From Candidatus Bathyarchaeia archaeon (GTDB taxonomy: Archaea > Thermoproteota > Bathyarchaeia > Bathyarchaeales > Bathycorpusculaceae), in contig JAVZLM010000004.1 of NCBI GenBank assembly GCA_038883775.1, positions 1 to 64,000 on the forward strand: 64,000 nt of DNA. Direction: 5' to 3'. The translations under genes and the position numbers were made by a program. Of the stretch, positions 26,575 through 44,593 are shown in pieces. Each line of letters begins with the position of its first letter. Within the stretch, counting starts at the first letter, position 1. The notes under the pieces are model-generated. The model saw only the letters and a list, made by a program, of their open reading frames with translations, was not told where the DNA came from and made no database searches.

Positions 26575-27513
26575 CTAATCAGGCAGTTCAAGATTCAATT
26601 GCTTCTTCAATGTTTTGTAGCGGTTTCTAACAGTTACTTCTGTAACACCAGCAGCCTCAGCAATATCTTTTTGAGTCTTCTTTTCATCGCTCTGCAAACA
26701 AGCGATATATAAGGCAGCAGCAGCCAAACCCATAGGGTCTTTTCCGGCAGCAGCCCGCCTCTTTCTTGCTTCCCTCAAAATCTGAACAGCCAAACCCTGG
26801 GTTCTGCCGCTAATCCCCGTTCGCTCAGCAATTTTTGACACATATGTTAGCGGGTCCGCAATGGGCATTTGCACATCCAACTCTCTCAAAAGCAACCTAT
26901 AGCAGCGGGCTACATCTTTCCTATCGACAAGGCTTGCCTCGGCAATCTCCCTAAGCGTTCTTGGTGTCCCGCTTCCACGACAAGCAGCATACAAGGCAGC
27001 AGCCGCTATCGCAGCAATGGATCTTCCACGAACCAAACCCTTGTCTAAAGCCTTGCGGTAAATTACAGCAGCTTTCTCCTTAATTGGTGGAGGGATATAC
27101 ACTTTATCAGAAAGTCTATCCAACTCAGCCATAGCCTGAGCCAAGTTCCTATCAATAGAACTGTGCACACGAGAGCGAATTTGCCATTTTCTCAAGCGCC
27201 ACATCTGCAACCGTGTGGAAAGAGGAAGTTTCCTTCCAAAGGCGTCGCGGTCAACCTGACTTATGGCAGTTGACAACCCTTTATCATGAACAGAATATGA
27301 TGTTGGCACTCCAACACGGCTTCTTGAAGCCTTTTCCTCTTGAGTGAAAGCTCGCCACTCGGGGCCTTTATCCATCATTTGCTCATACAAAACAAGTCCA
27401 CAATCGCCACAAACAGTCTCTCCAGTATCATAATCATGAATAAGGTTTACACTACCGCATTCTGGGCATTTATCGATTAGACGTTGGCGGGTTCCACCTT
27501 CTTTCTTGCTCAT
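26575..27513 (-). CDS. tfb: Transcription initiation factor TFB
   Basis: Zn ribbon CPECG..CGDCG, GPEWRAF B-reader, two cyclin repeats. Confidence 0.97.
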   Translation of the reverse strand: MSKKEGGTRQRLIDKCPECGSVNLIHDYDTGETVCGDCGLVLYEQMMDKGPEWRAFTQEEKASRSRVGVPTSYSVHDKGLSTAISQVDRDAFGRKLPLSTRLQMWRLRKWQIRSRVHSSIDRNLAQAMAELDRLSDKVYIPPPIKEKAAVIYRKALDKGLVRGRSIAAIAAAALYAACRGSGTPRTLREIAEASLVDRKDVARCYRLLLRELDVQMPIADPLTYVSKIAERTGISGRTQGLAVQILREARKRRAAAGKDPMGLAAAALYIACLQSDEKKTQKDIAEAAGVTEVTVRNRYKTLKKQLNLELPD

Positions 27514-30021: not shown

Positions 30022-31500
30022 ATGAGCGAAGAAGAAAGCCGTCCACCTCCAGAAAAAGTTCCCTTAGAAAAGATAGACAATTACACATGGCGCATACCAA
30101 AATACAAGCCAGGCATGCGAGTTCCAGGAGTAGTCTTTGCCAATGGCGAGTTACTGGAGAAAATGCAGACTGATAGAACACTTTGGCAATGCGCTAACGT
30201 TGCCCATTTACCAGGCATCTACAAATACTCCATAACGCTTCCAGACGGGCATGAAGGTTATGGTTTCCCGATAGGCGGAGTAGCTGCAACAGATTATGAA
30301 GAAGGCGTAATCAGCCCGGGTGGAGTGGGTTACGACATAAACTGTGGAGTTCGCCTATTAACAACAAACCTTTCAGAACAAGACATACGCCCAAAACTCG
30401 CCCAACTGACGAATACTATTTTCGAAAATGTTCCGTGCGGGCTTGGAAGTCGCAGAAAAGATTTCAAAGCCACAGCGCATGATTTGGAAAGGCTTGTTAC
30501 CGAAGGAGTTCAATGGGTCATCGATCAAGGGTTAGGCTGGTCTGAGGATGCTGAACATTGCGAGGAGCGCGGGTGCATGAAAAATGCAAATCCAGACAAG
30601 GTTTCAACAACAGCCAAAAATAGAGGCGTAACACAAATTGGCACCTTAGGCTCTGGAAACCATTTCCTAGAGATTCAAAAAGTAGACAAAATCTACGATG
30701 CCAAAACGGCTAAAATTTTCGGAATCGAACATGAAGGACAAGTAACAGTCATGATTCACTGCGGCTCCAGAGGCTTCGGCCACCAAATATGTTCAGACTA
30801 TTTGCGGGTTATGGAAAGAGCTGTGCATAAATATAAGATAGTTTTACCAGACCGGGAGCTTGCATGCGCTCCGGGAAAAAGTAATGAAGCAGAAGATTAT
30901 TATCAGGCGATGGCTTGCGCTGTTAATTATGCCTTTGCCAATCGTCAAGCCATAATGCATTGGGTTAGACAAAGTTTCCAACAAGTTTTCAAAGAAGACC
31001 CGGAAAGGTTTGGTTTAAAACTCGTTTATGACGTGGCTCATAACATTGCAAAAATAGAAGAGCATAGAATCAATGGAGAAAGAAGGAAGGTTTGGGTTCA
31101 CAGAAAAGGTGCAACAAGAGCCTTTCCGCCGGGGCATCCCGAAATTCCAGCCGACTACGCTTCAGTAGGTCAGCCAGTGCTTATACCAGGAAGTATGGGG
31201 ACAAGCTCTTGGCTTCTGGTGGGTACTGAAAAAGCTATGCAAATAAGTTTTGGCTCCACTGCTCATGGCGCTGGAAGAATGCTAAGCAGAAACGCTGCTA
31301 AAAGGAGGTTCTGGGGTGGAGACGTGAAAAAGGCTTTGGAGCAGCGAGGAATCTTTGTTAGGTCTGAAAGCTCTGTTGTTTTGGCTGAAGAGGCAGATCC
31401 AGCCTACAAAAATGTTGATATAGTTGCGGATGTGAGCGATAAAGTTGGAATAGCCACGAAAGTTGCTAGGTTTGTTCCAATAGCCGTGGTAAAGGGCTAA
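30022..31500 (+). CDS. rtcB: tRNA-splicing ligase RtcB
   Basis: PDGHEGYGFPIG, GYDINCG, GSGNHF, HRKGAT, HGAGR motifs. Confidence 0.97.
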   Translation: MSEEESRPPPEKVPLEKIDNYTWRIPKYKPGMRVPGVVFANGELLEKMQTDRTLWQCANVAHLPGIYKYSITLPDGHEGYGFPIGGVAATDYEEGVISPGGVGYDINCGVRLLTTNLSEQDIRPKLAQLTNTIFENVPCGLGSRRKDFKATAHDLERLVTEGVQWVIDQGLGWSEDAEHCEERGCMKNANPDKVSTTAKNRGVTQIGTLGSGNHFLEIQKVDKIYDAKTAKIFGIEHEGQVTVMIHCGSRGFGHQICSDYLRVMERAVHKYKIVLPDRELACAPGKSNEAEDYYQAMACAVNYAFANRQAIMHWVRQSFQQVFKEDPERFGLKLVYDVAHNIAKIEEHRINGERRKVWVHRKGATRAFPPGHPEIPADYASVGQPVLIPGSMGTSSWLLVGTEKAMQISFGSTAHGAGRMLSRNAAKRRFWGGDVKKALEQRGIFVRSESSVVLAEEADPAYKNVDIVADVSDKVGIATKVARFVPIAVVKG

Positions 31501-31501
31501 C
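31480..31501 (+). repeat. attL direct repeat (rtcB 3' end)
   Basis: ATAGCCGTGGTAAAGGGCTAAC, identical to 43377..43398. Confidence 0.93.
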
Positions 31502-31521
31502 TGTCACCGTAAAGGGATAAT

Positions 31522-32649
31522 TTATTTCCTTTTCCTGAAGAACATCAGCCCATCCTTCTCACATACGTATTCAAAGCCCACCTCAAGCAGCCCTTTGATT
31601 TCCTCAGGCGTCCTTGCAGTCTTCACGGTGAACTCGTCGTTTGAATCCTGGAATATCGTCCTTTCAATCTGAATATATAGCAAGGTAGTATCCAGTTTTT
31701 TGTGTCCAAGGAGCTCCTTAACGTAAAGAGGATCCTTCGTCCTGTGGTATTCCACCGTGGCTTTCCAATGCCTAAACGTGTGGAAGCTTATTTGCAGAAG
31801 CCTAGGGTTTGCAAGCTTCACCGCAATCTTTTTCCTAGCTAACATGAAGCTGCGTTTCATGGCATGATATGTTATTGGAAATATCCTCTCGCTTTTCCTC
31901 GGCAAGGCGTTAAGCATTCCAATAAGCTTTGAACTAACCTTAAAAACCCGAGGTTGACTCCCCTTTTCCGGCTGATTCAATACTATGATTTGCCTTTCAA
32001 AGTCCACATCTCTCCAGTTCAGCCTTAACGCTTCACCCGCCCTCATTCCAGTCTCCTTCAGAAGCTGCAGGAAAGCTGCAACCTTTTTTCCTGCACCAGC
32101 CACTAGATTATCAAGTTCGTTTTCAAGGGGTATAAAGGGAAGTTTCCTTTGTCTAACGCATTTAGGCTTTTCCCACGTTAACCCATGCATTTTCAGAAAG
32201 GCGTTTGCAGCACATATGGCATGATGCTTCCAGGAGTTGCTTTTATTCAGCCTAGCCAGAACATCTTTGATGCTTTCAGGGTTTAGGATATTTGCCGTGT
32301 TTTCAACCATCATTTTTAGGAATTCCACGTAATTCGCTATCGTATGCTCAGAACGCCCCTGCTTTTTAAGCCACCAGGCGAACTCTACGAGTCTTCCTTT
32401 AATGTCTGATGAAAGCTGTGTGGCCCCCGCATCCTGCCTTTCACCCTTCAATTCAAGGGTCAATGGGGCCCTCTCCAATATTATCGACTTGTGGTTTTGC
32501 TTTTGACTTTTATGGCTTGGATCCGTGAAGCGGTGTCCACAGTTTCGGCAGACAAACCTTTGAGCTGCTGAGCCATCTGTTAGGTAACGCATTCCATTCT
32601 TCCACAGAAGCGGTGAACCACATTGAGGACATCGAATGGGCTTATCCAT
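31522..32649 (-). CDS. int: Tyrosine recombinase/integrase with N-terminal Zn ribbon
   Basis: TGMRAGE, EKG, HTFRH, LGH, TLLY catalytic set; CPQC..CRNC. Confidence 0.93.
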   Translation of the reverse strand: MDKPIRCPQCGSPLLWKNGMRYLTDGSAAQRFVCRNCGHRFTDPSHKSQKQNHKSIILERAPLTLELKGERQDAGATQLSSDIKGRLVEFAWWLKKQGRSEHTIANYVEFLKMMVENTANILNPESIKDVLARLNKSNSWKHHAICAANAFLKMHGLTWEKPKCVRQRKLPFIPLENELDNLVAGAGKKVAAFLQLLKETGMRAGEALRLNWRDVDFERQIIVLNQPEKGSQPRVFKVSSKLIGMLNALPRKSERIFPITYHAMKRSFMLARKKIAVKLANPRLLQISFHTFRHWKATVEYHRTKDPLYVKELLGHKKLDTTLLYIQIERTIFQDSNDEFTVKTARTPEEIKGLLEVGFEYVCEKDGLMFFRKRK

Positions 32650-32655
32650 CGACCT

Positions 32656-33090
32656 TTATCCTTGGCTTGCTTTGTGTTCAAGCATGTGGTTCCATTGGTC
32701 GCAGATTTGCCATGCAAGTTTCCAGAAGCTTACACCGCCTAATGGAGCCCTTTTTGGTATGGGCTGCTTTATGAGGACGTATGCTTGAACTATTTTGCCT
32801 GTTTCCCTGTCGCATATTTGCTGTTGGCTTATGAAACCGAAGTCTAAGAGGCGCCTTAAAACCGTTCGGTATAGGCTTGAACGCCTATAACTGAAGCCCT
32901 TTTCTGCTTGGCCTTTCTGAAGCTTCCATGCGAAGCGGCTCAGCTGCGTGGATTTTGCATATCCTCCTCTCTTAAGCATCCAGTTGAACAGCAGCCTTGA
33001 AGCATACACTGTTTTGCGGTTTCTGAAGAGAAGCCTGAAAACGTCGCCGTTTTCAGAATTAGCCTCTTTTAAGGATTTAAGGCTTCTCAC
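32656..33090 (-). CDS. Hypothetical protein, possible winged-helix DNA-binding
   Basis: Basic; SSLYRTVLRRLLDFGFI helix followed by a wing-like hairpin. Confidence 0.55.
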   Translation of the reverse strand: MRSLKSLKEANSENGDVFRLLFRNRKTVYASRLLFNWMLKRGGYAKSTQLSRFAWKLQKGQAEKGFSYRRSSLYRTVLRRLLDFGFISQQQICDRETGKIVQAYVLIKQPIPKRAPLGGVSFWKLAWQICDQWNHMLEHKASQG

Positions 33091-33211
33091 CTTTCGTAGC
33101 CTCGAATTGCTGAGGATTAGGCTGCAGTCCTATTGTAATGGCAACCCGTAGATGCCAAGTGCAACCCATAGACGATGAAAATTTTAGCATTGAAGGGTCT
33201 AGGCTGTTTGT

Positions 33212-33550
33212 TCACCATTCAGCCTTTCCAGTGTGGTATTCGCCTTCAAGTAGGCGTATTCCTTCAGCCTCAAGCCTTTCAGCAATCCGCCTTTTGGCTT
33301 CTTCCCTATGCTTTTTAAGCTCCTCCGTCTCGCCATCAACAGCTAAGCCCTGATAGTATGTTGTTTCGTAGCGTAGTATTAGCCCATAATATGGGTCTAG
33401 GGCTGTTAGCCTAAACTTTCGGCGTTCAAACAATTCTTTGCGCTGAAGCCAATCGCTAAGCCTTGCTTCGCTTAGGTTTCTACGCTTTAGCTCCTCAATG
33501 AAGGTTTCAAGGCTTGTTAGTTGCAGGTAGACTAGAGGTTTGGAATCCAT
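33212..33550 (-). CDS. Hypothetical protein (element core)
   Basis: Overlaps the ATPase stop, co-oriented, protein-like composition. Confidence 0.65.
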   Translation of the reverse strand: MDSKPLVYLQLTSLETFIEELKRRNLSEARLSDWLQRKELFERRKFRLTALDPYYGLILRYETTYYQGLAVDGETEELKKHREEAKRRIAERLEAEGIRLLEGEYHTGKAEW

Positions 33551-34629
33551 TCGTCGCCTTCCCTTTTTATGGCCTTTAAGTGTTCAAGGTAGTTTAGTCG
33601 TCTGTAAATTGTGGCTGGGCTGTAGAGGCTTGAAAGCGCGTCTAGTATGCGGTTTGGTGTTGCTGGAAGCGTGAGCATTATGCGGAAGCTTGGCTCGTCT
33701 CCGCTGTATGGGCTTAGCCATAGAACGCTTAGGGCTTTGAGCAGTTTAACGTCGCTCTCGTCTACTTCCGTCCTGTTTCCGCGTAGGGCTGAAGCCTTAG
33801 CCATTGCCAAGACGTGGCGATGCGACCGGAAACGCGTTTCATCGCGGTTTACAGCCGCTATGACTCTTCCTAGGCGCATCAGGGCTTCTTTATGCTTTTC
33901 CGGAATTGCGATGCACACAGGCTTTTCCGGGAAGTCCAGCTTTACTGGTTTAAACGTGGGTTCAGCCCTGTATAGGGCTTGTTCCCCGCGGATTATGTCT
34001 TCAGGCGCGATGTGATAGCTTATTGGGACTGCTCGGCTGAGAAAGCCTAAGCGTATCCATTGTTTGCGTCTTGCTTTCCATTCGTCCGTTGTTAAGGCTG
34101 TTATAACGCCCGCCTTGACCGGCGTTGGCGAGTGGAATCGTATGTGGAAGGTGTCTATGTTTTGGACACCCTCTTCTATCAAAGCGTTAAGCGTCAACAG
34201 TATTTGGTGCCACACAGGGTTTCCTCTGGCTGTAAGCCGGACTAGATCCGCAACCATGACATGGCGTATAAGCCCGGCTTGGATTTGTCCAAGCAATCCC
34301 GTAAGCCCATAGCTTGTGAAATCGTTGTAAAGCGCGATGCCTCTGTTTTCTGTGTAAGCCTTAAGCAGCTCTGTTTTTCCGCTTCCTACAGGCGCGATGA
34401 TAAGCATGCTTAAAGGGTCGTATGGCTCAATGTAGCCGGTGTAAAGGGCCAGTTCAACGCTTACGGCTGTTGGAAGAAGTCCGGGCGGAAACTCTCTCAG
34501 AACAGTCGATGTCTTCTCAGAAGCGCATATATCACTAGAGATACATACACGCCTGAGATAAGAAAACTTCTCTGAGAGAAACCTTTCCAAAAGCCTAAGC
34601 CTAACCAAATAAGCCTTCTCAGCACGCAT
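33532..34629 (-). CDS. AAA+ ATPase, MCM-like, with C-terminal HTH
   Basis: Walker A APVGSGKT, degenerate Walker B VMVAD, LNALIEEG, FLSR arginine finger, RFRSHR..AKASA..EVDESDV sensor-2-like lid. Confidence 0.7.
   Translation of the reverse strand: MRAEKAYLVRLRLLERFLSEKFSYLRRVCISSDICASEKTSTVLREFPPGLLPTAVSVELALYTGYIEPYDPLSMLIIAPVGSGKTELLKAYTENRGIALYNDFTSYGLTGLLGQIQAGLIRHVMVADLVRLTARGNPVWHQILLTLNALIEEGVQNIDTFHIRFHSPTPVKAGVITALTTDEWKARRKQWIRLGFLSRAVPISYHIAPEDIIRGEQALYRAEPTFKPVKLDFPEKPVCIAIPEKHKEALMRLGRVIAAVNRDETRFRSHRHVLAMAKASALRGNRTEVDESDVKLLKALSVLWLSPYSGDEPSFRIMLTLPATPNRILDALSSLYSPATIYRRLNYLEHLKAIKREGDEWIPNL
34493..34579. other. Symmetric TCTCAG/CTGAGA array, candidate replication origin
   Basis: TCTCAG at 34495 and 34515, CTGAGA at 34553 and 34572, symmetric about CTAG 34535..34538. 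Confidence 0.45.
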
Positions 34630-34631
34630 CT

Positions 34632-35159
34632 CTAACCCTCAAAGAAGTATCGCGTAGGCGTTGTCGGGATTTTGAAGGCTCTGCCTTCGCTAACCAAAAG
34701 TTCAAAAGCAGACGTTATTACATCATCAGGATAGCCCAATCCCGCACTTTTGGCATCAGCGACAGTATACGCTTTGCCTTTCTCAAGGGTTTCAACTAAT
34801 CGTTTCTTGCAAGTTGATATCGAATCCTTTTGTGCTGCATCTGATGAAATAACAGCCTCAACTTTCCTGTCCCTATGCTTCCAAGCCAAAAACTTAACTT
34901 TCCGGCCGACCCATAGGTCCGTGTTACGTCCAAGAACAGAAATGAAGGCTCCGAGCTTAGAGTTAGGCCCAACGCGCTCCCTCTTCCATAACATCGTCGC
35001 ACATAAGCTTCCATCCCTGACATTACAAAGCGTAGCCCGCCATGCCTCAAGGCCTCGAAGCGGTGTTTTATTGATGTGCTCTACTGTTTCTATAGCGTAG
35101 GTTTCGCCTTCCTTTGGCTCCGGCAGAGGTTGGATGAACTCAACGTCTATCTCAGGCAT
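34632..35159 (-). CDS. Putative ssDNA-binding-like (beta-rich) protein with C-terminal winged helix
   Basis: Beta-rich N-half with LGAF..LG..TDLWVGRKV resembling phage SSB-like proteins; ATG overlaps the RHH stop (ATGCCTGA). Confidence 0.5.
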   Translation of the reverse strand: MPEIDVEFIQPLPEPKEGETYAIETVEHINKTPLRGLEAWRATLCNVRDGSLCATMLWKRERVGPNSKLGAFISVLGRNTDLWVGRKVKFLAWKHRDRKVEAVISSDAAQKDSISTCKKRLVETLEKGKAYTVADAKSAGLGYPDDVITSAFELLVSEGRAFKIPTTPTRYFFEG

Positions 35160-35316
35160 TTTTATCACCTAGTTTTTCTATGTTTGCTAAGCCTTGGATG
35201 ATAGATTGCCTTATAAGCTCGCTTCTGCTGATTCCCGTTTTGCGCTTGAATTCATCGACAAGCGACAGTAGCTCAAAAGGTATTGAAAAAGTTATAATTG
35301 CCGTTTTTCTTGGCAT
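35152..35316 (-). CDS. Ribbon-helix-helix (CopG-like) regulator, 54 aa (not in ORF track)
   Basis: Manual translation MPRKTAIITFSIPFELLSLVDEFKRKTGISRSELIRQSIIQGLANIEKLGDKNA: ITFSIP strand plus SRSELIR helix. Confidence 0.88.
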   Translation of the reverse strand: MPRKTAIITFSIPFELLSLVDEFKRKTGISRSELIRQSIIQGLANIEKLGDKNA

Positions 35317-35377
35317 TTTTTCACCATTTTTAAATAAAAGGTAAAATTTAAAGGCTTTTTCTTAAAATAAGCTCATT

Positions 35378-35444
35378 ATGTTAATATTAACATTTTCTTC
35401 TAATTTCAATATTGAAATTACGCCGTAAGTTTAATATTGAAATT
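35378..35444. promoter_or_regulatory. Three phased palindromic operator-like sites
   Basis: ATGTTAATATTAACAT (35378..35393), TAATTTCAATATTGAAATTA (35401..35420), TTAATATTGAAATT (35431..35444); AATATT cores at 35383, 35408, 35433. Confidence 0.65.
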
Positions 35445-36243
35445 GGGACAAATCCTTTACAAAAACTTTAAAGTTATTACAGACGTATTTAAATTGATGA
35501 ATTATCTTAAAATTAAAAGAAAAAGTCGAATTCAGAGACTGGTCAGGATAATTCTTCACTTGACCCATTGCGAAGATTACTTAGAGAGTATGCTTACAAA
35601 GTTCCGGCACTGTCACAATGAGGTAAAGGAAAGAACCTTATTATCAAAGGATATCAAATACCTAAAAAAAATGCGTATAATTAAGATCGCACGGATAGAG
35701 AAGGGTCGCGGGCTACCCAAGAAGTATTACACGCTGAATTTAGACGTCGTTTTAAATGTTCTGGGTCAAGGTAGAATTAAAGGAGCGGAAAAGCAAATAA
35801 TTATCGAAGGATGCAAGGCAGCTTCAAAAATGATCAACGCATTGAAGATCAGAAACTCTTCCAAACTAGACACTCAAATTATTTTAAAAGCTCCTTTTAT
35901 AGCAACGTTGCATATGGGTGAAATGGTGAGAAGCCCACCCCTTATTAAACTTCCACAATACCCACTAGGCAGTGAAAGTACTAGAAATGAGGAAAGGGAT
36001 TATTATAAGGCTGAGATCGGTGAAGATTCAGCAAATTGGTTTTGGAATGATGAAAAATGGAGTTCTTTCGAGAAAGCTGTTAAAAAATTTGTTACCGAAA
36101 GGGACGTAAAGGTTTTTTATGACGCCATAAGCGAAATTCCGAATGGTGATTTGGAGTCATGTTTAAAGGTTCTCTCGAAGTTTTCCTCAAAGTTTCACGA
36201 ACCCCTTAAAGTAATAATTGACATCTTTTCACGGGCTTGTTAA
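35437..36243 (+). CDS. Winged-helix transcriptional regulator-like protein
   Basis: ERTLLSKDIKYLKKMRII..GRGLPKKYYTLN wHTH wing; likely start ATG 35497. Confidence 0.65.
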   Translation: MKLGQILYKNFKVITDVFKLMNYLKIKRKSRIQRLVRIILHLTHCEDYLESMLTKFRHCHNEVKERTLLSKDIKYLKKMRIIKIARIEKGRGLPKKYYTLNLDVVLNVLGQGRIKGAEKQIIIEGCKAASKMINALKIRNSSKLDTQIILKAPFIATLHMGEMVRSPPLIKLPQYPLGSESTRNEERDYYKAEIGEDSANWFWNDEKWSSFEKAVKKFVTERDVKVFYDAISEIPNGDLESCLKVLSKFSSKFHEPLKVIIDIFSRAC

Positions 36244-36833
36244 GTATATTGCTACATGAACGGTCACCGAATAGCTATTTAGGTTCGACCATGACCAATA
36301 TAATTTTGGTCCAGCTATATACCTCGTACTCCAGCATTCAAATAATGTTGGAAAAGTAATGTCTGGAAGATATACAGGGACATCCCAATTCGCAAATATT
36401 ATAAGACCACTTGTTGATGTAAAACCGAAGGCAAATCTGACGTTAATCGTATCACCACTAGCCGCGGGCCCTTCTGCTCTGACAGCTACTGTTATTGTTT
36501 TATATCCCGTTAAATTCCCTAAATACGCGTAGCCGATCATGCCCATGGCAGGAGGTATCGTCCAATTTAATGTGATTTCTTTGCTTAAAGTTTCCATTAC
36601 TACTCGTTTTGCTGGGGGTCTCCTGTTTTTCCATATGCCTTCCATATTGCCAACGCATCTAATCCATCTATTCGCCCATCATCGTTAACGTCCAGCCATG
36701 GATCATAATCGCTGGTTCCAGCCTTGCCAGAGGATTGGCTGCGCAATGATTGACTTTCAGAAACGCATATGAAACCTAAAGCCAATATTATGGCACTGAG
36801 GCAAACAGATATCGAGTATTTTTTCCAATTCAA
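36229..36833 (-). pseudogene. Frameshifted secreted protein with N-terminal dockerin-like Ca-binding motif
   Basis: Signal peptide plus YDPWLDVNDDGRIDGLD..YGKTGDP in one frame; continues as AKRVVMET.. in the overlapping frame at G5 run 36614..36618. Confidence 0.6.
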
Positions 36834-36953
36834 AATATAATATCACCTCCTTTCTCCTCTCAAATCAAATAATGTTCAAGGTTAAGCAAATTTTAAGTTT
36901 ACGGGACAATAAACTACCCGCCCCTTTGGAGGCCATTCAGCAAATGGATCCTC

Positions 36954-37238
36954 TTAATTGCTTCTTTTAAGCTTATTTATTAGGCGTAATGCTTCAGTTA
37001 TGGCTGGATTTATCACGCCTTCATCCATCATTATGTGGTTCGCTGCAGAAATGTATGCTTTCCAGTCTCCACCTGAGATTATGAAGGTTTCGAAAGGCGT
37101 TTTAATAGGGTTGTGGCGCATCAGCCTATGATTTTTGCCTAAACGCTTATATGGCTCATCCATCCACTTATGGAGCCAACTATAACGTTTACCGAAAAGC
37201 AGCATATCCAAATATTCGTGTATACGTCTAGAGGGCAT
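36954..37238 (-). CDS. Small His-rich putative metal-binding protein
   Basis: IHEYLD, LHKWMD, HRLMRH, NHIMMD pattern. Confidence 0.65.
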   Translation of the reverse strand: MPSRRIHEYLDMLLFGKRYSWLHKWMDEPYKRLGKNHRLMRHNPIKTPFETFIISGGDWKAYISAANHIMMDEGVINPAITEALRLINKLKRSN

Positions 37239-37381
37239 ATTTTATCCACTTAACGCTAAGGCGTCGATAAATATAAACGTCGCGAAAATTGGGTTTAAAT
37301 TTAAGCTAAAAAGCGTTTTGAAGCCGTTTCAGGGTTTAAAGCTTAAATTGAAGGTCAAACTCCATATTTAGCGTGTAGGAG

Positions 37382-37603
37382 ATGGACAGGCGTTACCCAT
37401 CCTATTACAAGGTAAGCGAAGTTGCGCAAATGCTTAACGTGACAGATCAAACTGTCTACCGATGGATTAAGAAGGGCCTAATAGTTTGCATTAGGCTGCC
37501 CTCCGGCCATTTAAGAATCCCCAGCAGTCAGCTTTTCAAAATTTATGCGAATTATAGGCTTAATCGTAGACGAATAAGGCGCAAACTTTATCATTTTATA
37601 TAA
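37382..37603 (+). CDS. Excisionase-like / MerR-type HTH DNA-binding protein
   Basis: YKVSEVAQMLNVTDQTVYRWIKKG..RLPSGHLRIP; AGGAG before ATG. Confidence 0.85.
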   Translation: MDRRYPSYYKVSEVAQMLNVTDQTVYRWIKKGLIVCIRLPSGHLRIPSSQLFKIYANYRLNRRRIRRKLYHFI

Positions 37604-37737
37604 TTTAACCACAAATAACTTCAATTGACTTGTTTTGCTATAATTGACCCAAAACTTGGATAAGGGTGTTTTCCACGATGAGCTCCAAGATTATTTAATT
37701 TTAAACAGGTTAAACCTTCAAAATAGGAAAAATTGGG

Positions 37738-39810
37738 TTACGGGTCCTTTTCTCCGTATCTGCTTGTTGCTATGACAATATCGTAAATGTTTATTACGCC
37801 ATCGTCTAGCCAGTCAACATTTGGGTTATAGTTTGGCTGTCCGATTGTGGAGCCATATGTGCTTGTTATCAAAACAACATCATAAATGTCTATGTCTCCG
37901 TCAGCGTCAGCGTCCCCTGGTGTCACTATGCAAACCCATCCGTTGATGTAGTTGTTGTTGGCTTCCTCTGTTTCGCCCCGAACTGGGGGGATGTAAGCTG
38001 TTATTGTATAGTTTCCTTTCGTGAGACCTGATGGGTGCCAACAGATTATTACTGTTGTCGAGTTTTTACCGGTTATGGTTAATTCGTACGTGCCTATGGT
38101 TGTTGTGTTAGCGTAAAGTGTTAAGTGGAAGGTCTCTGTTATGTCGCCATTATTTTGAACTGTTACGGAGATTTTCAGTCTATAGCCTTCTCCGACAAGC
38201 GTTTTTTCGAGGTGGACATCTGCGATGGCAATGTCGCAGATGATGACTTTAACCTCAACCATGCCGTTAACATAATGATTATTCTCCGCATTTCTTTCGC
38301 CGGAGATTGGAGACGCATATGCGCTTATTGTATAGTTTCCCAACGCAATATTTGTGGCGTTCCATAGGAATGTTATTGTTTTTATGTTGTCCGGTGCAAG
38401 GTTGGAGACCGTTTGCGTTCCAATGGGGTTAGAATCGTAGTAAACGGTGACGTTGAAGGTTTCTGTGAAGTATCCCAGATTTGCAACAGAAACATTTATG
38501 GTCAAGAAATCCCAACCCTGCCCTAAAACGGTTTTTGAAGGAGAAACATTCGCTATGGAAACGTCGTGGAAGGGCATAACTTTAACAACCCAGAAATCAC
38601 TCTTACCAGCCCCATACGAATATGTGTAGCCAGCTGCCACATATCCTCCATCGCTTGTCTGCTGAACAGACAGCGCCCCTTCCGATCCAACTCCGCCAAA
38701 GGCTTTATTCCATTCCATGTTTCCGTAAGCGTCAACCTTAACAAGCCAAGCGTCATATTCCCCAGATCCAATTGATTTCGTTTTTCCAGCAATTATGTAC
38801 CCTCCATCAAAGGTCTTCTGAATTTCACATCCAACATCATCTTGACTCCCACCATACGTTTTATTCCATTCCATGTTTCCGTAAGCGTCAACCTTAACAA
38901 GCCAAGCGTCATATTCCCCAGATCCAAAAGACTTTGTTGAACCAATAACGATGTACCCTCCATCACTCGTCTGTAAAACATATGAAGCAAAGTCGCTCTC
39001 GGCTCCACCATACGTTTTATTCCATTCCATGTTTCCGTAAGCGTCAACCTTAACAAGCCAGAAATCTTCCATTTGACCAACTGCACTAGTGTAGCCGGCC
39101 ATTATGTATCCTGTGTCACTTGTTTGTTTAACATCCCACGCTTCTTGGAATAAAGCATCTCCATACGTTTTATTCCATTCCATGTTTCCGTAAGCGTCAA
39201 CCTTAACAAGCCAAGCGTCATAGTTGCCAGCCCCAAACGACCTAGTCCAGCCAGCAACAGCGTACCCCCCATCGCTTGTCTGCTGAACAGAATAGGCCAA
39301 ATCCCAATCCTGTCCGCCACAGGTTTTATTCCACTTCACGTTACCCTCTGAATCTACCTTAACAAGCAGAAAATCATCCCGTAAAGCTCCTATTTCAGGG
39401 ATAAAAACAGCCGTTCGTCCAGCCATTATGTATCCTCCGTCACTTGTCTGCTGAGCCGAATACGCCATGTCTGCGTATGTCCCACCGTACGTTCTATTCC
39501 ACAACGTGTTTCCGTACGCGTCGGTTTTAATCAGCCAAAAATCTGAAGATCCAATGCTGAAAGAGCCAGTCCACCCAACAATCGCGTAGCCTCCATCACC
39601 GGTCTCATGAACCCAATAAGCTACGTCAAGTTGGCTTCCACCATACGTTTGGTTCCATTCCACAATCGAATTTTGCACCAGTACTTTTTTGGTCTCGCCT
39701 ACACCAAAGCTTAAAGCCTCATCAAGCCAAAAGGTGTCACGACAAAAATTAACCAATAACCCTGCCAAAAGAATCATAATAGAAGCTAAGACAATAGCGA
39801 TCTTCACCAA
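37738..39810 (-). CDS. Secreted beta-propeller repeat protein with two CARDB-like domains and C-terminal dockerin-like domain
   Basis: Signal peptide; seven WNKTYGG..QTSDGGY repeats; HDVSI/CDIAI..GNYTI CARDB; GDADADGDIDIYD and DWLDDGVINIYD. Confidence 0.85.
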   Translation of the reverse strand: MVKIAIVLASIMILLAGLLVNFCRDTFWLDEALSFGVGETKKVLVQNSIVEWNQTYGGSQLDVAYWVHETGDGGYAIVGWTGSFSIGSSDFWLIKTDAYGNTLWNRTYGGTYADMAYSAQQTSDGGYIMAGRTAVFIPEIGALRDDFLLVKVDSEGNVKWNKTCGGQDWDLAYSVQQTSDGGYAVAGWTRSFGAGNYDAWLVKVDAYGNMEWNKTYGDALFQEAWDVKQTSDTGYIMAGYTSAVGQMEDFWLVKVDAYGNMEWNKTYGGAESDFASYVLQTSDGGYIVIGSTKSFGSGEYDAWLVKVDAYGNMEWNKTYGGSQDDVGCEIQKTFDGGYIIAGKTKSIGSGEYDAWLVKVDAYGNMEWNKAFGGVGSEGALSVQQTSDGGYVAAGYTYSYGAGKSDFWVVKVMPFHDVSIANVSPSKTVLGQGWDFLTINVSVANLGYFTETFNVTVYYDSNPIGTQTVSNLAPDNIKTITFLWNATNIALGNYTISAYASPISGERNAENNHYVNGMVEVKVIICDIAIADVHLEKTLVGEGYRLKISVTVQNNGDITETFHLTLYANTTTIGTYELTITGKNSTTVIICWHPSGLTKGNYTITAYIPPVRGETEEANNNYINGWVCIVTPGDADADGDIDIYDVVLITSTYGSTIGQPNYNPNVDWLDDGVINIYDIVIATSRYGEKDP
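38704..39213. repeat. Four identical 45-bp intragenic blocks
   Basis: TTTATTCCATTCCATGTTTCCGTAAGCGTCAACCTTAACAAGCCA at 38704, 38860, 39016, 39169. Confidence 0.85.
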
Positions 39811-39923
39811 TCATCTCCAACATTCTTAGAGAGGCAACTCTTATTTTAGGATAACGTTGCAAAGCTTAAATATGACATAAGTCAAAAATATTGAAGAAAT
39901 GTATATGTGTATATTAAAAAAAA

Positions 39924-42900
39924 TTGATCAACAAACTTGTGCTTGCCATGATTCTGACAAGCTCATTAACATCTTTTAATGTCCCGTTTATAAAAGCACA
40001 AATTAGGGATAAAGCGACTGCAATAAAGTTTCTAGAGGATATTGTAGGCCTCAAAATGGATGCTTATGATATTTGGTTTGAAGCTGAAGGCAGTTACGTT
40101 TCAGAATTCTCAGGACATTTGGAGACCTATTTTAATATAAGACTTCGTAGTGTAAATGGAGAACTTTGCGCCAATTTTGTCTTTGTAGATGGCAATGTAT
40201 ACTTCTACGCGTTGGAGAGAACATCCTCAAATGCGCTGTTGATGTTAGACTATTCTGAAAAGGATTACGTTTATATTGTAAATAGGGCACTTCAACAATA
40301 TCAGCTCAGCTTTAATAAACCCTACTACGCTGGCTTCGCCAAAATGCTTGAAAACGTCACGATCTTTCAGAACCAAACAATAGAAATAGACTCTATTACC
40401 CTTACATTGATGCACACAGAACATGACATTTGCCTATACTGGTGTAGCAACATAGATGGCACAGAAGTTCCAGACAAAACCTTCTCCATGCGCATATCTA
40501 AGGATGGTTTCATCGATAGGTTTTCGGATGGTTGGGAGATTAACAAGATAGCCACTATGAACGTTAATGTGTCAAGAGGAGAAGCGCTGAACTTTGCTTA
40601 CGGCATTGCTAAACCATATGCTGACAAAATTGGTGCCAAAATAGTGGCTAATGAGACAACGCTACATTTTTCAAGGGACATTTCACGAAAGCGCGATGAT
40701 TATTACGTGATCTATCCTTTATGGACGGTAAACTTTGAATTTAATAGCGCCGTCAAAGGCATATGTGGATATTCAGTGGGTATATGGGCAGATAATGGCG
40801 AACTTTATTATAAAGCTCCGCAAGCGTTCTATGGGCGTTCAGCCACCATACTTGGCTCATCAGACCCCTTAGACGAACAATTACGACAAGATGTTACATT
40901 GTGTATACAAAGCAGTTTCATAACCGACCCTGCTTATGATACTGTATACTATTGGTACGGGGACAACACCACAAAGGAGAACATATATATTGCTGCTACA
41001 GGGGCCGGACGAAACTATTCTATATCATTTTACGTAGGCCATGGCGAAAAATATACGGAAACTGATGGAACTACACATTGGAGAATATACGATCATGACT
41101 GCACCCAAGTAATAAGGGATACGGATATATTTCCATACTCTGTTAATCAGCGAGTAAGGTTTGTGTTTTTATGGGCTTGTTATCAAGGGGACTACATTGG
41201 AGGAAATGATTCATCAGGTAATCCTCAAGGAATGCCCTATGCGTGGCTTCATACAACAAATCTGAGTAAATATGGGTACAAGACTCCTGATTATGGCGGC
41301 TATACATTTATAGGATTCTATGGTCTATCTCCAGCCTTAACAACGCCACTGGATGGTAAACCTAACGCCAGTTACTGGTTTTTACGCTACTTCTACAATG
41401 AAGCGTTGTACCCTCGAGCTTACAATTTGAGAACCTCCCTTGATCGCGCTTCCCTTGAGCTATGGGGTAAGTACTTTGGCAGCTGTATATTGTATAACGG
41501 ATATGCGTGTCCTCAAGGTCAAGGTCAAATGGTGGTTTACGGCGACGGATCTATGTTCATTGGCACAATATCACAACTAACAGTGCGAACATACGCGCGC
41601 AATGAAATCGGTGAACCTTATGAAGAGATCGAAAATGTGACAGTTTGGGTGAACGGAACAAAATATCTTTCTCCAGCTTTCGTCGCAGTCCATGAAGGAA
41701 TATACAACGTTACCGTACCTTTAAAGTCTTACTCTCCTCAAGGGGACTTACTTTACAAGTTTGAGCGTTGGGAAAACCACAACACAAACAATTCAAGGAT
41801 TCTGAACGTTAAAAGCGACACGAGTCTAAGCGCTTATTATTTCGCGGAAACTAACGATTCTCCATTAACTCCGCATAAACCCAGCGGCAACACTTCAATA
41901 TACACGGTCCAACAGTACGCGTATACCACTAAGACCATAGATCCTGAAGGCGATTTGGTTTACTACAACTTCAGTTGGGGTGATGGCACTTATACTATGG
42001 TGGGTCCGTTTAAGTCGAATGAAACTGCAAGTGCTTCTCATACATGGGATCTTGGCGGAACATATAACATTACAGTTAAAGCCATAGATCCAGGAGGAAA
42101 AGAGAGCAGCTGGTCTGAACCGCTAGAAGTCAGCACTATTAATAGGCCGCCAAGCATTCCCTTGAAACCTTGGTGCCACACTTACACTGGATATGTTGGC
42201 GTTTCATACACGTGGAGCACAAGCACAATAGACCTTGAGGGAGACAACGTTTGTTACCTTTTCGATTGGAGCGACGGCTCAACAAGCTTAGTGGGTCCAT
42301 ACGCTTCGGGCGTTACAGCTTCAGCAACCCACAATTGGACTTCAACGGGAACATACTACGTTAAGGTTAAGGCCAAGGACGTTCATGGAAACTGGAGCGA
42401 TTGGTCTCCAAGCCAAACCATGAACATCATAGAAACGCCACCACCAAGCGGCTGCCCATTTGTCTATGTTTGGAACGGCACGCATTATGTCATTGATAAT
42501 AACGTTTTGCCAGCTGCTGAAGACTCTGGCGGACTTGATGTTAATGATTACTATGTGCTTCATCAGCCTCTCACTCCAACATTTCAAGGCGCATACCACG
42601 CGATTTACTCGCTAAAATTGTGCGAATTTGGACAAGAACACGACTATATAGACCGGGTTAGGCTTTTTGCTGTTGATCACGCTGTAGGCGTTAATGTGGC
42701 AGTTAGCCCATACGGCGAAATCCTAACATACGCCAATCCAGCCTCGCCCACAACTGCTGTAGATAACAACGGCATTGACGTTTTATCGTTGTTGAATGCT
42801 ATGGATGGAAGCTATTATCAGGGCTATAATGGAAGCTACGTAACATTAACATTCGCAGGCTCTGACGTTTCCAACGGCGCAAAACTTGTCATAAGGGAGG

Positions 42901-43328
42901 ACGGACCAGTGAGAAAATGTCCCATCCACGTTCAAGTGTTGAATGTATCTGGCTATTGGGAGAATGTGGCCACATTCTATACTAGGCATTATTGGACCAC
43001 CGACGTAATCAACATGACTGGCTGCTTGCCGGACGCTGAAGGAAAAATGCGCGTCAGACTGTGCTTCGTGGACGTGGACAGAATAGACTATGTAGGCTTA
43101 GACACAAGCCCACAAGCAGAAATCCAAATGCAAGAGGCTTATCTGGTTTCAGCATACCACTCTCAAGAAGGCCTTGTAACGTTAAAGCTGCTCTGTAACG
43201 ACAACATATACGCAGAACTAACTCCACAACAACAAATAAAATTAACATTCATCCTACTCGCGCAACCAAATGAAACCAGAACGTTCATATTCTACGCTGA
43301 AGGCCACTACTACACCATAACAGGCTAA
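39924..43328 (+). CDS. Large secreted multidomain protein: possible clan CD cysteine-peptidase-like domain, two PKD domains, C-terminal GCPF domain
   Basis: Signal peptide; FYVGHG and FLWAC; FSWGDGT and FDWSDGS PKD repeats. Confidence 0.7.
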   Translation: MINKLVLAMILTSSLTSFNVPFIKAQIRDKATAIKFLEDIVGLKMDAYDIWFEAEGSYVSEFSGHLETYFNIRLRSVNGELCANFVFVDGNVYFYALERTSSNALLMLDYSEKDYVYIVNRALQQYQLSFNKPYYAGFAKMLENVTIFQNQTIEIDSITLTLMHTEHDICLYWCSNIDGTEVPDKTFSMRISKDGFIDRFSDGWEINKIATMNVNVSRGEALNFAYGIAKPYADKIGAKIVANETTLHFSRDISRKRDDYYVIYPLWTVNFEFNSAVKGICGYSVGIWADNGELYYKAPQAFYGRSATILGSSDPLDEQLRQDVTLCIQSSFITDPAYDTVYYWYGDNTTKENIYIAATGAGRNYSISFYVGHGEKYTETDGTTHWRIYDHDCTQVIRDTDIFPYSVNQRVRFVFLWACYQGDYIGGNDSSGNPQGMPYAWLHTTNLSKYGYKTPDYGGYTFIGFYGLSPALTTPLDGKPNASYWFLRYFYNEALYPRAYNLRTSLDRASLELWGKYFGSCILYNGYACPQGQGQMVVYGDGSMFIGTISQLTVRTYARNEIGEPYEEIENVTVWVNGTKYLSPAFVAVHEGIYNVTVPLKSYSPQGDLLYKFERWENHNTNNSRILNVKSDTSLSAYYFAETNDSPLTPHKPSGNTSIYTVQQYAYTTKTIDPEGDLVYYNFSWGDGTYTMVGPFKSNETASASHTWDLGGTYNITVKAIDPGGKESSWSEPLEVSTINRPPSIPLKPWCHTYTGYVGVSYTWSTSTIDLEGDNVCYLFDWSDGSTSLVGPYASGVTASATHNWTSTGTYYVKVKAKDVHGNWSDWSPSQTMNIIETPPPSGCPFVYVWNGTHYVIDNNVLPAAEDSGGLDVNDYYVLHQPLTPTFQGAYHAIYSLKLCEFGQEHDYIDRVRLFAVDHAVGVNVAVSPYGEILTYANPASPTTAVDNNGIDVLSLLNAMDGSYYQGYNGSYVTLTFAGSDVSNGAKLVIREDGPVRKCPIHVQVLNVSGYWENVATFYTRHYWTTDVINMTGCLPDAEGKMRVRLCFVDVDRIDYVGLDTSPQAEIQMQEAYLVSAYHSQEGLVTLKLLCNDNIYAELTPQQQIKLTFILLAQPNETRTFIFYAEGHYYTITG

Positions 43329-43376
43329 AATCAAAGAAAAAGTGAGTTTGCGGGGGAGATTTCGCCAAGCATGCCG

Positions 43377-43398
43377 ATAGCCGTGGTAAAGGGCTAAC
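43377..43398 (+). repeat. attR direct repeat (copy of rtcB 3' end)
   Basis: Identical to 31480..31501; extends to 25 bp with one synonymous mismatch (CCA/CCG). Confidence 0.93.
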
Positions 43399-43400
43399 CG

Positions 43401-43808
43401 CTAAGCTTTCCTTTTCCTTGTTTTCAGCTCTTGTTCTCCGTAGCCTTGTTCAGAACTTAGTTTCCTTTGGATTTTTATTCGCTTTTCTTCTATCGAATGC
43501 GCCTTATGTATTTCCTTCATGTACCATCCTCTTTCCCTTGCATAATGAACGCTTACCATGATTCCAGCTAAGAGTAAGACCAAACCAATGGACGTTAAAG
43601 TTAAACCTAATAGGCTGTAGGGATGTGGTGTCAAATGGTATGGAATTATCAAAAGCCACTCTGGATTCTCAACTTTTATAACAGTTTCAAGTAATCCGCC
43701 CACAAAAAATATGGAGCCTATTATGATTATTAAATAGCCAACCGTTTCATTATGCCTTGATTCTTCCGCCTTTTCATGCAAATATTCGCTAAAAAGCATC
43801 AAAATCAC
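43401..43808 (-). CDS. Hypothetical membrane protein
   Basis: Two TM segments; stop codon 2 bp outside attR, so convergent with rtcB in the empty site. Confidence 0.7.
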   Translation of the reverse strand: MILMLFSEYLHEKAEESRHNETVGYLIIIIGSIFFVGGLLETVIKVENPEWLLIIPYHLTPHPYSLLGLTLTSIGLVLLLAGIMVSVHYARERGWYMKEIHKAHSIEEKRIKIQRKLSSEQGYGEQELKTRKRKA

Positions 43809-43900
43809 GGTTTGAGCAGCGGCATGGTTATCTATAAACTTTATTGCGACTTCCGAATAGGTTTATAACAAATGCCTCAAATAGTTATTAAACAAATGCC

Positions 43901-44593
43901 TTGCGTTTACTTGGGGTTTGGATGCCGTTAAAGGATGAATGTGGAATATGCGGCAGGGTTCTTCCTTATGCCTATCTTAGGCGCTGTCAAAGATGTGGAA
44001 AACTTTTCTGTAAAGATTGCATGGTTCCAGATGTTTCTACAAGTGATCCCACAAGAATGTTATGTCTCCATTGCGCAAGAAAAATAGTTTCGCCGAAATC
44101 CACAACAAAATATGGAGCGCTTACAAACTATCTAAAATTTAGGGCAACCTTCACCAACACCGTTAAGCTTTCCCTTGCTGAAATAGATGGGATAATAAAG
44201 GATAACCTGCCCATAAACGCATATAAAAACGAGGAATGGTGGAATAACAACCCAGCAAACGCTCATGCTAAGGCTTGGATCGACGTCGGATGGAAGGTGC
44301 AAGAGACAAATTTGAAAGAAGGCTATGTGATCTTTCAAAAAGTAAAGGAAGTAAAGGCAAAAGGGTTTAAGAAAAAAGCCAATGGGAAAGAAATCAAAAA
44401 GCCTTTTACACCCGTTTCCGCCCGGTTTCCAAAAAGCAAAAAACCATCAAAAACAAAAGTTTCAAAACTCTATGCCAGACTAAAAAATATAGAAAGACAA
44501 AGAAAAAACATGCCAGTATATCCGGGCAGTTTCAAACCAAAACCCACCCACGAGAAAAAACTTTTCAAGCCAGAAAAGAAACCTCAATCATAA
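43901..44593 (+). CDS. Zinc-finger protein with central W-rich domain and basic tail
   Basis: Four CxxC pairs; KYGALTNYL..WWNN..AWIDVGW. Confidence 0.7.
   Translation: MRLLGVWMPLKDECGICGRVLPYAYLRRCQRCGKLFCKDCMVPDVSTSDPTRMLCLHCARKIVSPKSTTKYGALTNYLKFRATFTNTVKLSLAEIDGIIKDNLPINAYKNEEWWNNNPANAHAKAWIDVGWKVQETNLKEGYVIFQKVKEVKAKGFKKKANGKEIKKPFTPVSARFPKSKKPSKTKVSKLYARLKNIERQRKNMPVYPGSFKPKPTHEKKLFKPEKKPQS

Follow-up and report, generated by a model that had tools for sequence, protein, structure and literature searches.

We analysed a 64,000-nucleotide (nt) stretch of the genome of a Candidatus Bathyarchaeia archaeon (assembly GCA_038883775.1, contig JAVZLM010000004.1, positions 1 to 64,000; hereafter the window, to which all coordinates refer unless another locus is named) and found that the spacer between two divergent regulator genes of an integrated element contains three tandem dyads that are not explained by chance. 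This spacer (35317–35496; 180 bp) has a GC content of 22%, compared with 41% for the genome. It separates the gene for a 54-amino-acid (aa) ribbon-helix-helix (RHH; CopG-type) regulator on the minus strand (35152–35316), the first gene of a leftward operon, from the plus-strand gene (35497–36243) for a 248-aa regulator (p248), a member of a rare family with an N-terminal winged helix (approximately residues 9–80) and a helical C-terminal domain. The spacer is probably the control region of the element, in which the three dyads act as operators for the element's own DNA-binding proteins.

The first dyad, P1 (35378–35393), is a perfect 16-bp palindrome, ATGTTAATATTAACAT, of the form ATGT-N8-ACAT. 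The second, P2 (35401–35420), is a perfect 20-bp palindrome, TAATTTCAATATTGAAATTA, at the centre of the spacer and is among the seven palindromes of at least 20 bp in the genome. The third site, TTAATATTGAAATT (35431–35444), is a hybrid that contains both the P1 word TTAATATT and the P2 word AATATTGAAATT. Read as a dyad, P3 (35427–35444) is imperfect (7 of 9 pairs), carries words common to P1 and P2, and differs from the P2 core at two positions. The starts of the AATATT cores, 35383, 35408 and 35433, are separated by two steps of exactly 25 bp. The initial annotation, which had likened this arrangement to the operators of phage lambda, described the two perfect palindromes, the hybrid site and the exact 25-bp phase of the cores correctly.

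Variants of this region that are ~95% alike are present in other hot-spring metagenomes, whose contigs were matched at a likeness of at least 80%. Two of these contigs span the array, one of run X3 over 34890–35693 (38 differences and 4 gaps) and one of run X5 over 35188–35586 (18 differences and 4 gaps).

The spacer also exhibits an approximate mirror symmetry (35329–35493) around the P2 centre at 35410.5, with P1 and P3 at -25 and +25. TTTAAA, a word common in AT-rich DNA, is placed around the same centre at 35329, 35347, 35467 and 35488, and the inverted-repeat pairs I9 and I12 coincide with the two promoter-like sides of the spacer.

Non-randomness of the array

As a null model, the intergenic region (35317–35496) was shuffled 20,000 times with its dinucleotide composition preserved. 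A palindrome of at least 16 bp appeared in 750 shuffles and one of at least 20 bp in 97, and just five contained a palindrome of at least 20 bp plus a second one of at least 16 bp. Three or more AATATT words were present in 173 shuffles, and three equally spaced ones in two. Although the initial annotation had cautioned that the region is very AT-rich, AT-richness does not explain the array. The three sites are real and non-random.

Counts in the whole genome (1.69 Mb in 28 contigs, 41% GC) gave a similar picture. Perfect palindromes of at least 16 bp number 40, those of at least 20 bp number seven, and P1 and P2 form the sole palindrome pair less than 200 bp apart; in the 64-kb window, only seven perfect palindromes reach 14 bp. 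The word AATATTGAAATT occurs three times in the genome, each time within the array. No further copy of an array site was found elsewhere in the element at up to three mismatches, as is expected of a local autoregulatory target.

The exact P1 and P2 words were also found at 63 and 11 loci of viral contigs, respectively. None of these 74 loci encodes a relative of the 54-aa RHH protein or of p248; three AATATT words in steps of 25 bp are seen at none of them, and a single pair with this spacing at one. We therefore regard them as chance matches in AT-rich DNA.

The two divergent regulators

The left gene, which was predicted to encode an RHH protein, indeed does so: its product matches Pfam RHH_1 (PF01402) over residues 8–43 with an E-value of 1.1e-7 (31.9 bits; cut-off 20.5), and its PHROG matches are families of transcriptional repressors. 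The nearest NCBIfam model is the cell-cycle RHH protein aCcr1 (NF053762; 35.1 bits, E 9e-9), a score below the 60-bit cut-off of that model and thus a resemblance, not membership. An identical 54-aa protein with PF01402 is present in a public protein collection. The ATG of the gene is preceded at 5–9 nt by GGTGA, a type of motif that is used in this genome, with a peak 10–14 nt before the starts of 1,025 long open reading frames (ORFs).

The facing gene has no family match in Pfam, PHROG or NCBIfam. An exhaustive search of 1.84 billion proteins at E≤0.001 yielded four proteins including p248 itself. The three relatives are 31–36% identical to p248, and their starts lie no more than a few residues from ATG 35497; the two closer ones, P0003 (named as ArsR-family in its source) and P0004, are both encoded on short contigs. 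ATG 35497 was preferred as the start over TTG 35437 and over a database call of 217 aa, because the N-termini of the relatives align with residues 1–11. No Shine-Dalgarno-like motif was seen upstream of 35497.

Word-index searches for relatives of both regulators returned only the proteins themselves, and no regulator relatives were detected by a single-protein scan of genome contigs or an alignment scan of viral contigs. Within the family, p248 matches are found in two of 332 genomes (the genome under study, G000, and that of locus L041 described below), and in an order sample of 401 genomes they are found in G000 alone. The p248 profile matched 133 of 401 genomes in a class sample, mostly in reading frames of ~320 aa. 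With G000's own gene set aside, these matches cover profile positions of about 5–121, mostly 17–80, which correspond to the winged-helix part; no full-length relative beyond G000's own was present in this sample.

The winged-helix nature of p248, also anticipated by the initial annotation, was recovered by profile, model and structure searches alike. A profile built from the four proteins had its best match in the Protein Data Bank (PDB) in the PadR-like entry 5h20_A (E 6.9e-5, residues 1–74), followed by ArsR, MarR and Lrs14 entries. The AlphaFold2 model based on a five-row alignment has a mean predicted local distance difference test (pLDDT) score of 78 overall and about 90 in the winged-helix part, whereas a single-sequence model reached a pLDDT of 38 and was unusable. 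The model contains three helices and a two-strand wing (helices 9–24, 29–39 and 42–58; strands 62–68 and 75–80), followed by ~160 helical C-terminal residues. In a VIA search, the model matched the archaeal ArsR-type structure 2cwe with a Z-score of 10.1 (76 residues, root mean square deviation 2.6) and 4g6q with a Z-score of 10.0, and several PadR entries reached 8.3–9.3. PadR/LmrR entries dominate the structure matches of p248, and ArsR-type archaeal proteins score equally well. Modelling thus indicates that the p248 N-terminus is a winged helix of either PadR or ArsR type. Prediction of a p248 homodimer gave a score of 0.02 and a mark of 0.42.

The form of P1 bears on this assignment. The published PadR consensus operator is ATGT-8N-ACAT, and padR is divergent from its target. 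By its sequence, P1 appears as an exact copy of this PadR-type form next to a regulator gene, and such sites number 36 in the genome, where 0.004 are expected per 180 bp.

Predicted core promoters in the spacer

To place promoters, we used a B recognition element (BRE)/TATA matrix derived from the 60 nt upstream of the 36 predicted tRNA genes of the genome (consensus TACGAAAACTTAAAAA). For the leftward operon, the best predicted BRE/TATA element lies at 35347–35362 on the minus strand and includes TTTAAA at 35347–35352; its score of 8.7 is reached by about 0.04–0.09% of genome positions. For the p248 gene, the best prediction lies at 35458–35473 on the plus strand (TTTAAA at 35467–35472) and scores 11.0, which exceeds the median of the tRNA promoters (10.3) and is reached by about 0.01% of genome positions. 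This TTTAAA is located 30 nt before ATG 35497, a distance that fits a leaderless mRNA.

None of the dyads scores 7 or more with the same matrix. The predicted promoters are located 13–16 bp outside the array, one on each side, and the dyads lie at about -52 to -72 from both predicted transcription starts. The dyads are thus predicted to occupy the space between two divergent core promoters, an arrangement that does not suggest a lambda-style occlusion of both promoters. A look-up of RNA runs covering this stretch listed none.

The leftward operon and its relatives

The RHH gene is followed on the same strand by genes for a 178-aa protein (p178; 34632–35168), the start of which overlaps the end of the RHH gene by 17 nt in the ORF table, a 365-aa P-loop ATPase (33532–34629) and a 112-aa protein (p112; 33212–33550), all tightly spaced. 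After a gap of 121 nt come the genes for a 144-aa protein (p144; 32656–33090) and a 375-aa tyrosine integrase with an N-terminal zinc ribbon (31522–32649), which closes the string (Pfam Phage_integrase E 1.2e-17; PHROG integrase E 4e-27). p178 and p112 belong to no curated family, and neither does p144, which has no match in Pfam, PHROG or NCBIfam.

The ATPase is possibly a replication helicase, although this is a lead only. Its Pfam matches are weak and AAA-type, sequence and profile searches of the PDB matched P-loop stretches only, and it fits no curated family; its look-alikes in a structure atlas are viral hypothetical proteins, including one cluster with RNA_helicase on 10% of its members. 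Relatives of the ATPase are present in 21 of the 401 class genomes, G000 included. Therefore, while the initial annotation was right that the RHH gene heads a tight operon ending in a tyrosine integrase, its designation as a replication operon is likewise no more than a lead, because the ATPase lacks a curated family and has weak AAA-type and viral matches.

Two family genomes, G396 (locus L026) and G322 (locus L027), carry the same operon, with an unchanged order of p178, p112, p144 and the integrase. The ATPases are 87% and 84% identical to that of the window, respectively, and across the two loci the identities are 55–66% for p178, 82–83% for p112 and 77% for p144. The heads of the operons are different: that of G396 has no RHH gene and faces a divergent gene for a 187-aa protein with a weak TrmB match, whereas that of G322 has an RHH gene, the product of which is 25% identical, and a small divergent gene. 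Neither spacer contains TGTTAA or AATATT. Three elements thus share one p178-ATPase-p112-p144-integrase backbone and have three regulator sets (window 35152–36243; L026 6597–7232; L027 7156–7680). As far as the sequences indicate, the presence of different regulator sets at a fixed position at the operon head amounts to cassette replacement. A toxin–antitoxin pair of the RHH protein and p178 was considered and dropped, since p178 occurs in G396 without an RHH protein.

At only two other loci were p248 relatives found, L041 (in a Bathyarchaeota metagenome-assembled genome) and L042 (on a metagenome contig), and both present the reciprocal situation. In both, a gene for an RHH homologue (39% identity over 44 aa, E 1e-10) is divergent from the p248 homologue, and none of the seven other element proteins tested is encoded in the 9.7 kb of L041 or the 5.4 kb of L042. 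Judging from these alignments, the RHH/winged-helix pair is a conserved, portable divergent cassette among unrelated neighbours.

The words of the array are partly shared by the spacers of these cassettes. TGTTAA occurs four times in the L041 spacer (a count reached by 2 of 5,000 shuffles) and twice in that of L042 (167 of 5,000). For AATATT, the numbers are three in L041, reached by 12 of 5,000 shuffles, and two in L042, reached by 206. In addition, AATATTAACAT, the right part of P1, is present at L041 3037–3047. The 25-bp phasing, the conservation of which the initial annotation had named as a check, is not kept in them: the AATATT cores of L041 start at 2970, 3010 and 3037 (steps of 40 and 27 bp), and those of L042 at 2534 and 2561 (step of 27 bp). 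With a likeness of 84%, the two loci amount to a single comparison. Taken together, the same operon occurs elsewhere without the sites, and the cassettes occur elsewhere with shared words; the sites thus track the regulators and not the replication/integration genes, which speaks for operators and against a replication origin.

A candidate second operator type is the promoter-proximal block GTTATTAC ... ACGTATTTA (35473–35491, plus strand), the 8- and 9-mer words of which recur in the same order beside the gene start in L041 (3086–3100) and L042 (2616–2625). However, the promoter region of a tRNA-Gln gene (genome contig C2, upstream of 46834) contains AAAGTTATTACG, which consists of nearly the same words (window 35470–35480; L041 3086–3094), and the block may therefore be promoter DNA and not an operator.

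The G322 copy of the operon looks decayed (L027 2141–3302, 7681–8204 and 8365–9309): its p178 gene is split over two frames, its ATPase is truncated by ~36 residues at the N-terminus, and another integrase-like stretch, broken into three pieces, is located 7 kb away. In G396, a stand-alone Cas1 gene (L026 5335–6378; Pfam Cas_Cas1 E 6.3e-47) lies directly left of the divergent regulator gene, with a small RHH gene (4436–4633) and a DNA methylase gene (1696–2514) nearby; this neighbourhood could be a casposon-like or Cas1-carrying element.

Possible functions of the array

As stated above, we consider it probable that the element's own proteins use the three dyads as operators. Which protein binds which site, whether it represses or activates, and whether the array behaves as a switch are what we infer. 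We slightly prefer p248 over the RHH protein as the protein that would bind P1, P2 and P3 as dimers, because P1 has the perfect ATGT-N8-ACAT form found only 36 times in the genome, and a 20-bp palindrome suits a winged-helix dimer with wing contacts. As P2 and P3 are variants of P1, the affinity should be graded. The RHH protein would autoregulate its operon in the manner of CopG or F55, either at the same dyads or at ATTAC-type boxes, which are found at 35417–35424 and just after the predicted TATA box of p248; the aCcr1 box uses this latter position. Given the location of the dyads about 52–72 bp upstream of the predicted starts, cooperative binding of several dimers is likelier than direct occlusion, and it could act through wrapping, spreading or contact with TFB/TBP. 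A distance of 25 bp corresponds to ~2.4 helical turns, so that neighbouring dimers would probably not lie on one face of the DNA.

Several observations weigh against this explanation. The dyads do not appear to coincide with the best predicted BRE/TATA elements, which would be an unusual position for archaeal repressors. Archaeal regulator sites that overlap TATA or lie downstream of it are mostly repressive, and those upstream of it are often activating. The tRNA-derived matrix is itself rough, with the motif position scattered among the 36 upstream regions. As for p248, a Foldseek search of the PDB with the model gave no match at E≤0.001, although the same kinds of protein were listed, and PadR (Pfam PF03551) was not matched, one of the four family members reaching a below-threshold E-value of 0.028. 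L041 and L042 contain no perfect long palindrome and no P2-type half-site, and of the strict half-site of the window, L041 has one copy and L042 has none. The comparative support is thin, because the motifs were chosen after inspection and the two loci are 84% alike.

Known regulators offer partial parallels to the proposed autoregulation. PadR shares with this locus the exact form of P1 and the divergent position of the regulator gene, and the best solved match of the p248 family is PadR-like, but p248 does not reach the Pfam PadR family, ArsR-type proteins score equally well, and p248 has a helical C-terminus of ~160 residues. CopG of pMV158 and ORF56 of pRN1 are RHH proteins that head replication operons and control copy number through a single operator at their own promoter. 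Here too, a small RHH gene is the first of an operon with the element's maintenance genes, which by analogy implies autoregulation of the whole operon, but CopG and ORF56 have no divergent second regulator.

For dyads upstream of a core promoter, the best functional analogy is Ss-LrpB of Sulfolobus, described as binding three regularly spaced, AT-centred, palindromic 15-bp boxes with one dimer each and wrapping ~100 bp at full occupation (PMC1802622). Ss-LrpB is a chromosomal Lrp-family protein with another consensus, however, and Lrp and RAM domains are absent here. In the archaeal plasmid-virus pSSVx, two small regulators, C68 and the CopG homologue ORF60, are reported to be encoded divergently around a spacer with at least two operators, including one halfway between the promoters. 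It differs in that C68, a swapped-hairpin protein of AbrB type, has two sites of non-palindromic motif, whereas three dyads and a 248-aa winged-helix protein are found here. In the haloarchaeal provirus SNJ2, the winged-helix protein Orf4 is reported to control integrase expression via a palindrome (PMC10123103). That system relies on a single palindrome inside the integrase promoter and on an Orc1/Cdc6-based anti-repressor module, and no such module was recognised here.

Among the alternatives, a strict lambda-type bistable switch fares best but is unlikely. In this scheme, the RHH protein and p248 would be mutually antagonistic and would bind the same three operators in opposite orders of affinity, one state being dormant and the other having the replication/integrase genes on. 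In lambda OR, the operators OR1–OR3 lie between cI/PRM and cro/PR with centre spacings of 24 and 23 bp. The geometry postulated by the initial annotation is borne out to this extent: three tandem dyads of similar size (16–20 bp) with a centre spacing of 25 bp and graded half-sites lie between divergent regulators of an integrative element. Like immunity regions, the cassette is replaced as a whole among related elements. On the other hand, the lambda operators overlap both promoters, whereas the core promoters here are predicted to flank the array, so that one occupied dyad would not block either of them. Both lambda regulators are helix-turn-helix (HTH) proteins that read the same sites, and the reading of identical sites by a beta-ribbon and by a recognition helix would be unusual. 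Moreover, neither the phasing nor the number of sites is kept in L041 and L042. An archaeal precedent is F55 of the Sulfolobus virus SSV1, a small RHH lysogeny regulator that is described as reminiscent of lambda CI, binds several graded sites including its own promoter and keeps early genes off (PMC5569661). F55 is likewise a small RHH protein of an integrating archaeal element; its sites, however, are tandem repeats over the transcription start site and BRE, while the sites here are palindromes upstream of the predicted BRE/TATA elements, and the kinship is that of a shared RHH fold family.

Lambdoid phages have mosaic immunity regions, which the pattern of one backbone with different cassettes and of one cassette in different backbones resembles. 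A bolder version of the operator explanation, which we hold to be quite improbable, is that the cassette is a portable 'immunity cassette' of Bathyarchaeia mobile elements, swapped like lambdoid immunity regions and endowed with a true two-state switch. A mirror-symmetric nucleoprotein complex, in which the dyads are placed at -25, 0 and +25 between TATA boxes near -61 and +59, would then be positioned upstream of both core promoters and steer the recruitment of TFB/TBP to either side. If this is true, the lineage would have its first defined genetic switch, one with a logic other than promoter occlusion.

It is very unlikely that the phased dyads are instead the iterons of a replication origin recognised by an initiator from the adjacent operon, even though the spacer is far lower in GC (22%) than the genome (41%) and its regular repeats lie beside an operon with a P-loop ATPase. 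The elements with the same ATPase (84–87% identity) and p178 (55–66%) have no repeats at the equivalent place, the repeat words occur in L041 and L042, where those proteins are absent from the 9.7 and 5.4 kb of sequence, and no replication initiator family was recognised among the element proteins in Pfam, PHROG, NCBIfam or PDB searches.

The remaining possibility, to which we give similarly little credence, is that a host factor (an Lrp-like or another chromosomal winged-helix protein) binds the sites or that they are symmetric AT-rich promoter DNA without further function: arrays of AT-centred palindromes are targets of archaeal Lrp-type regulators, as in Ss-LrpB (PMC1802622), ~320-aa proteins with a p248-like winged helix occur in 133 of the 401 class genomes, and the whole spacer is roughly mirror-symmetric with its four TTTAAA words (35329, 35347, 35467 and 35488). 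However, within the genome AATATTGAAATT and the two long palindromes are confined to this locus, which makes a host regulon unlikely, and the shuffles argue against chance.

Every ingredient of the locus is precedented, as divergent regulators with multiple operators are common in phages, plasmids and archaeal viruses; the novelty lies in the lineage, in the rare p248 family and in a clean layout that is almost mirror-symmetric. A full-text search on integrated elements of Bathyarchaea found no publication on an RHH/winged-helix cassette of this kind among the matches shown, judged by title and abstract. Bathyarchaeia are abundant uncultivated archaea, whose mobile elements are not known to have been studied experimentally for gene control. 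The locus offers a compact test case, with a 180-bp spacer, three sharp dyads, two small regulators that lend themselves to recombinant production and natural swap controls in relatives. If the sites work as proposed, they would constitute the first operator/regulator pair for the lineage and a possible genetic-tool part for thermophilic archaea. The array is probably one of operators and, while its principle is not surprising, would provide a tractable first regulatory module for Bathyarchaeia elements.

The integrated element

The element of ~11.9 kb sits in the 3′ end of rtcB (30022–31500; Pfam RtcB E 1.6e-178) and is flanked by exact 22-bp direct repeats, the left attachment site at 31480–31501, which covers the rtcB stop codon, and the right one at 43377–43398. 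In a contig of metagenome run X4, position 31500 is joined to 43399 with four letters between them, which represents an empty site. Other joints were found in X2 (31499 to 43915) and in X3 and X5 (31287 to 43922). Because these contigs from other metagenomes join rtcB to the far flank, the DNA between the repeats is an insertion. An integrase, direct repeats and an empty site, by which an integrated tyrosine-recombinase element is recognised, are all present. The array was also considered as arm sites of the integrase or excisionase and as a terminator; the former was dropped because it lies 3.9 and 7.9 kb from the repeats, and the latter because the flanking genes diverge.

To the right of p248, the element encodes a 73-aa HTH protein of the excisionase family (37382–37603, plus strand; TIGR01764 'excise', 35 bits, cut-off 28.8; HTH_17 E 1.8e-12), 81% identical to its counterpart in L027. 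Its gene forms a second divergent pair (36954–37603) with a gene for a 94-aa protein of no family, and this pair is kept in G322 (L027 6104–6758), where the 94-aa protein is 53–78% identical with its gene interrupted and the 73-aa protein 81% identical. The region also includes a small dockerin-like ORF (36600–36833) and genes for two large secreted-type cargo proteins (37738–43328), one (690 aa) with CARDB domains and repeats of a WNKTYGG-like unit and one (1134 aa) with PKD domains. Secreted-type cargo of this kind is unusual for a 12-kb integrative element.

The element has thus inserted into the end of a tRNA ligase gene, rtcB, and not into a tRNA gene. A TFB gene (26575–27513; TFIIB repeats E 2.9e-41) is located 4 kb to the left of the element.

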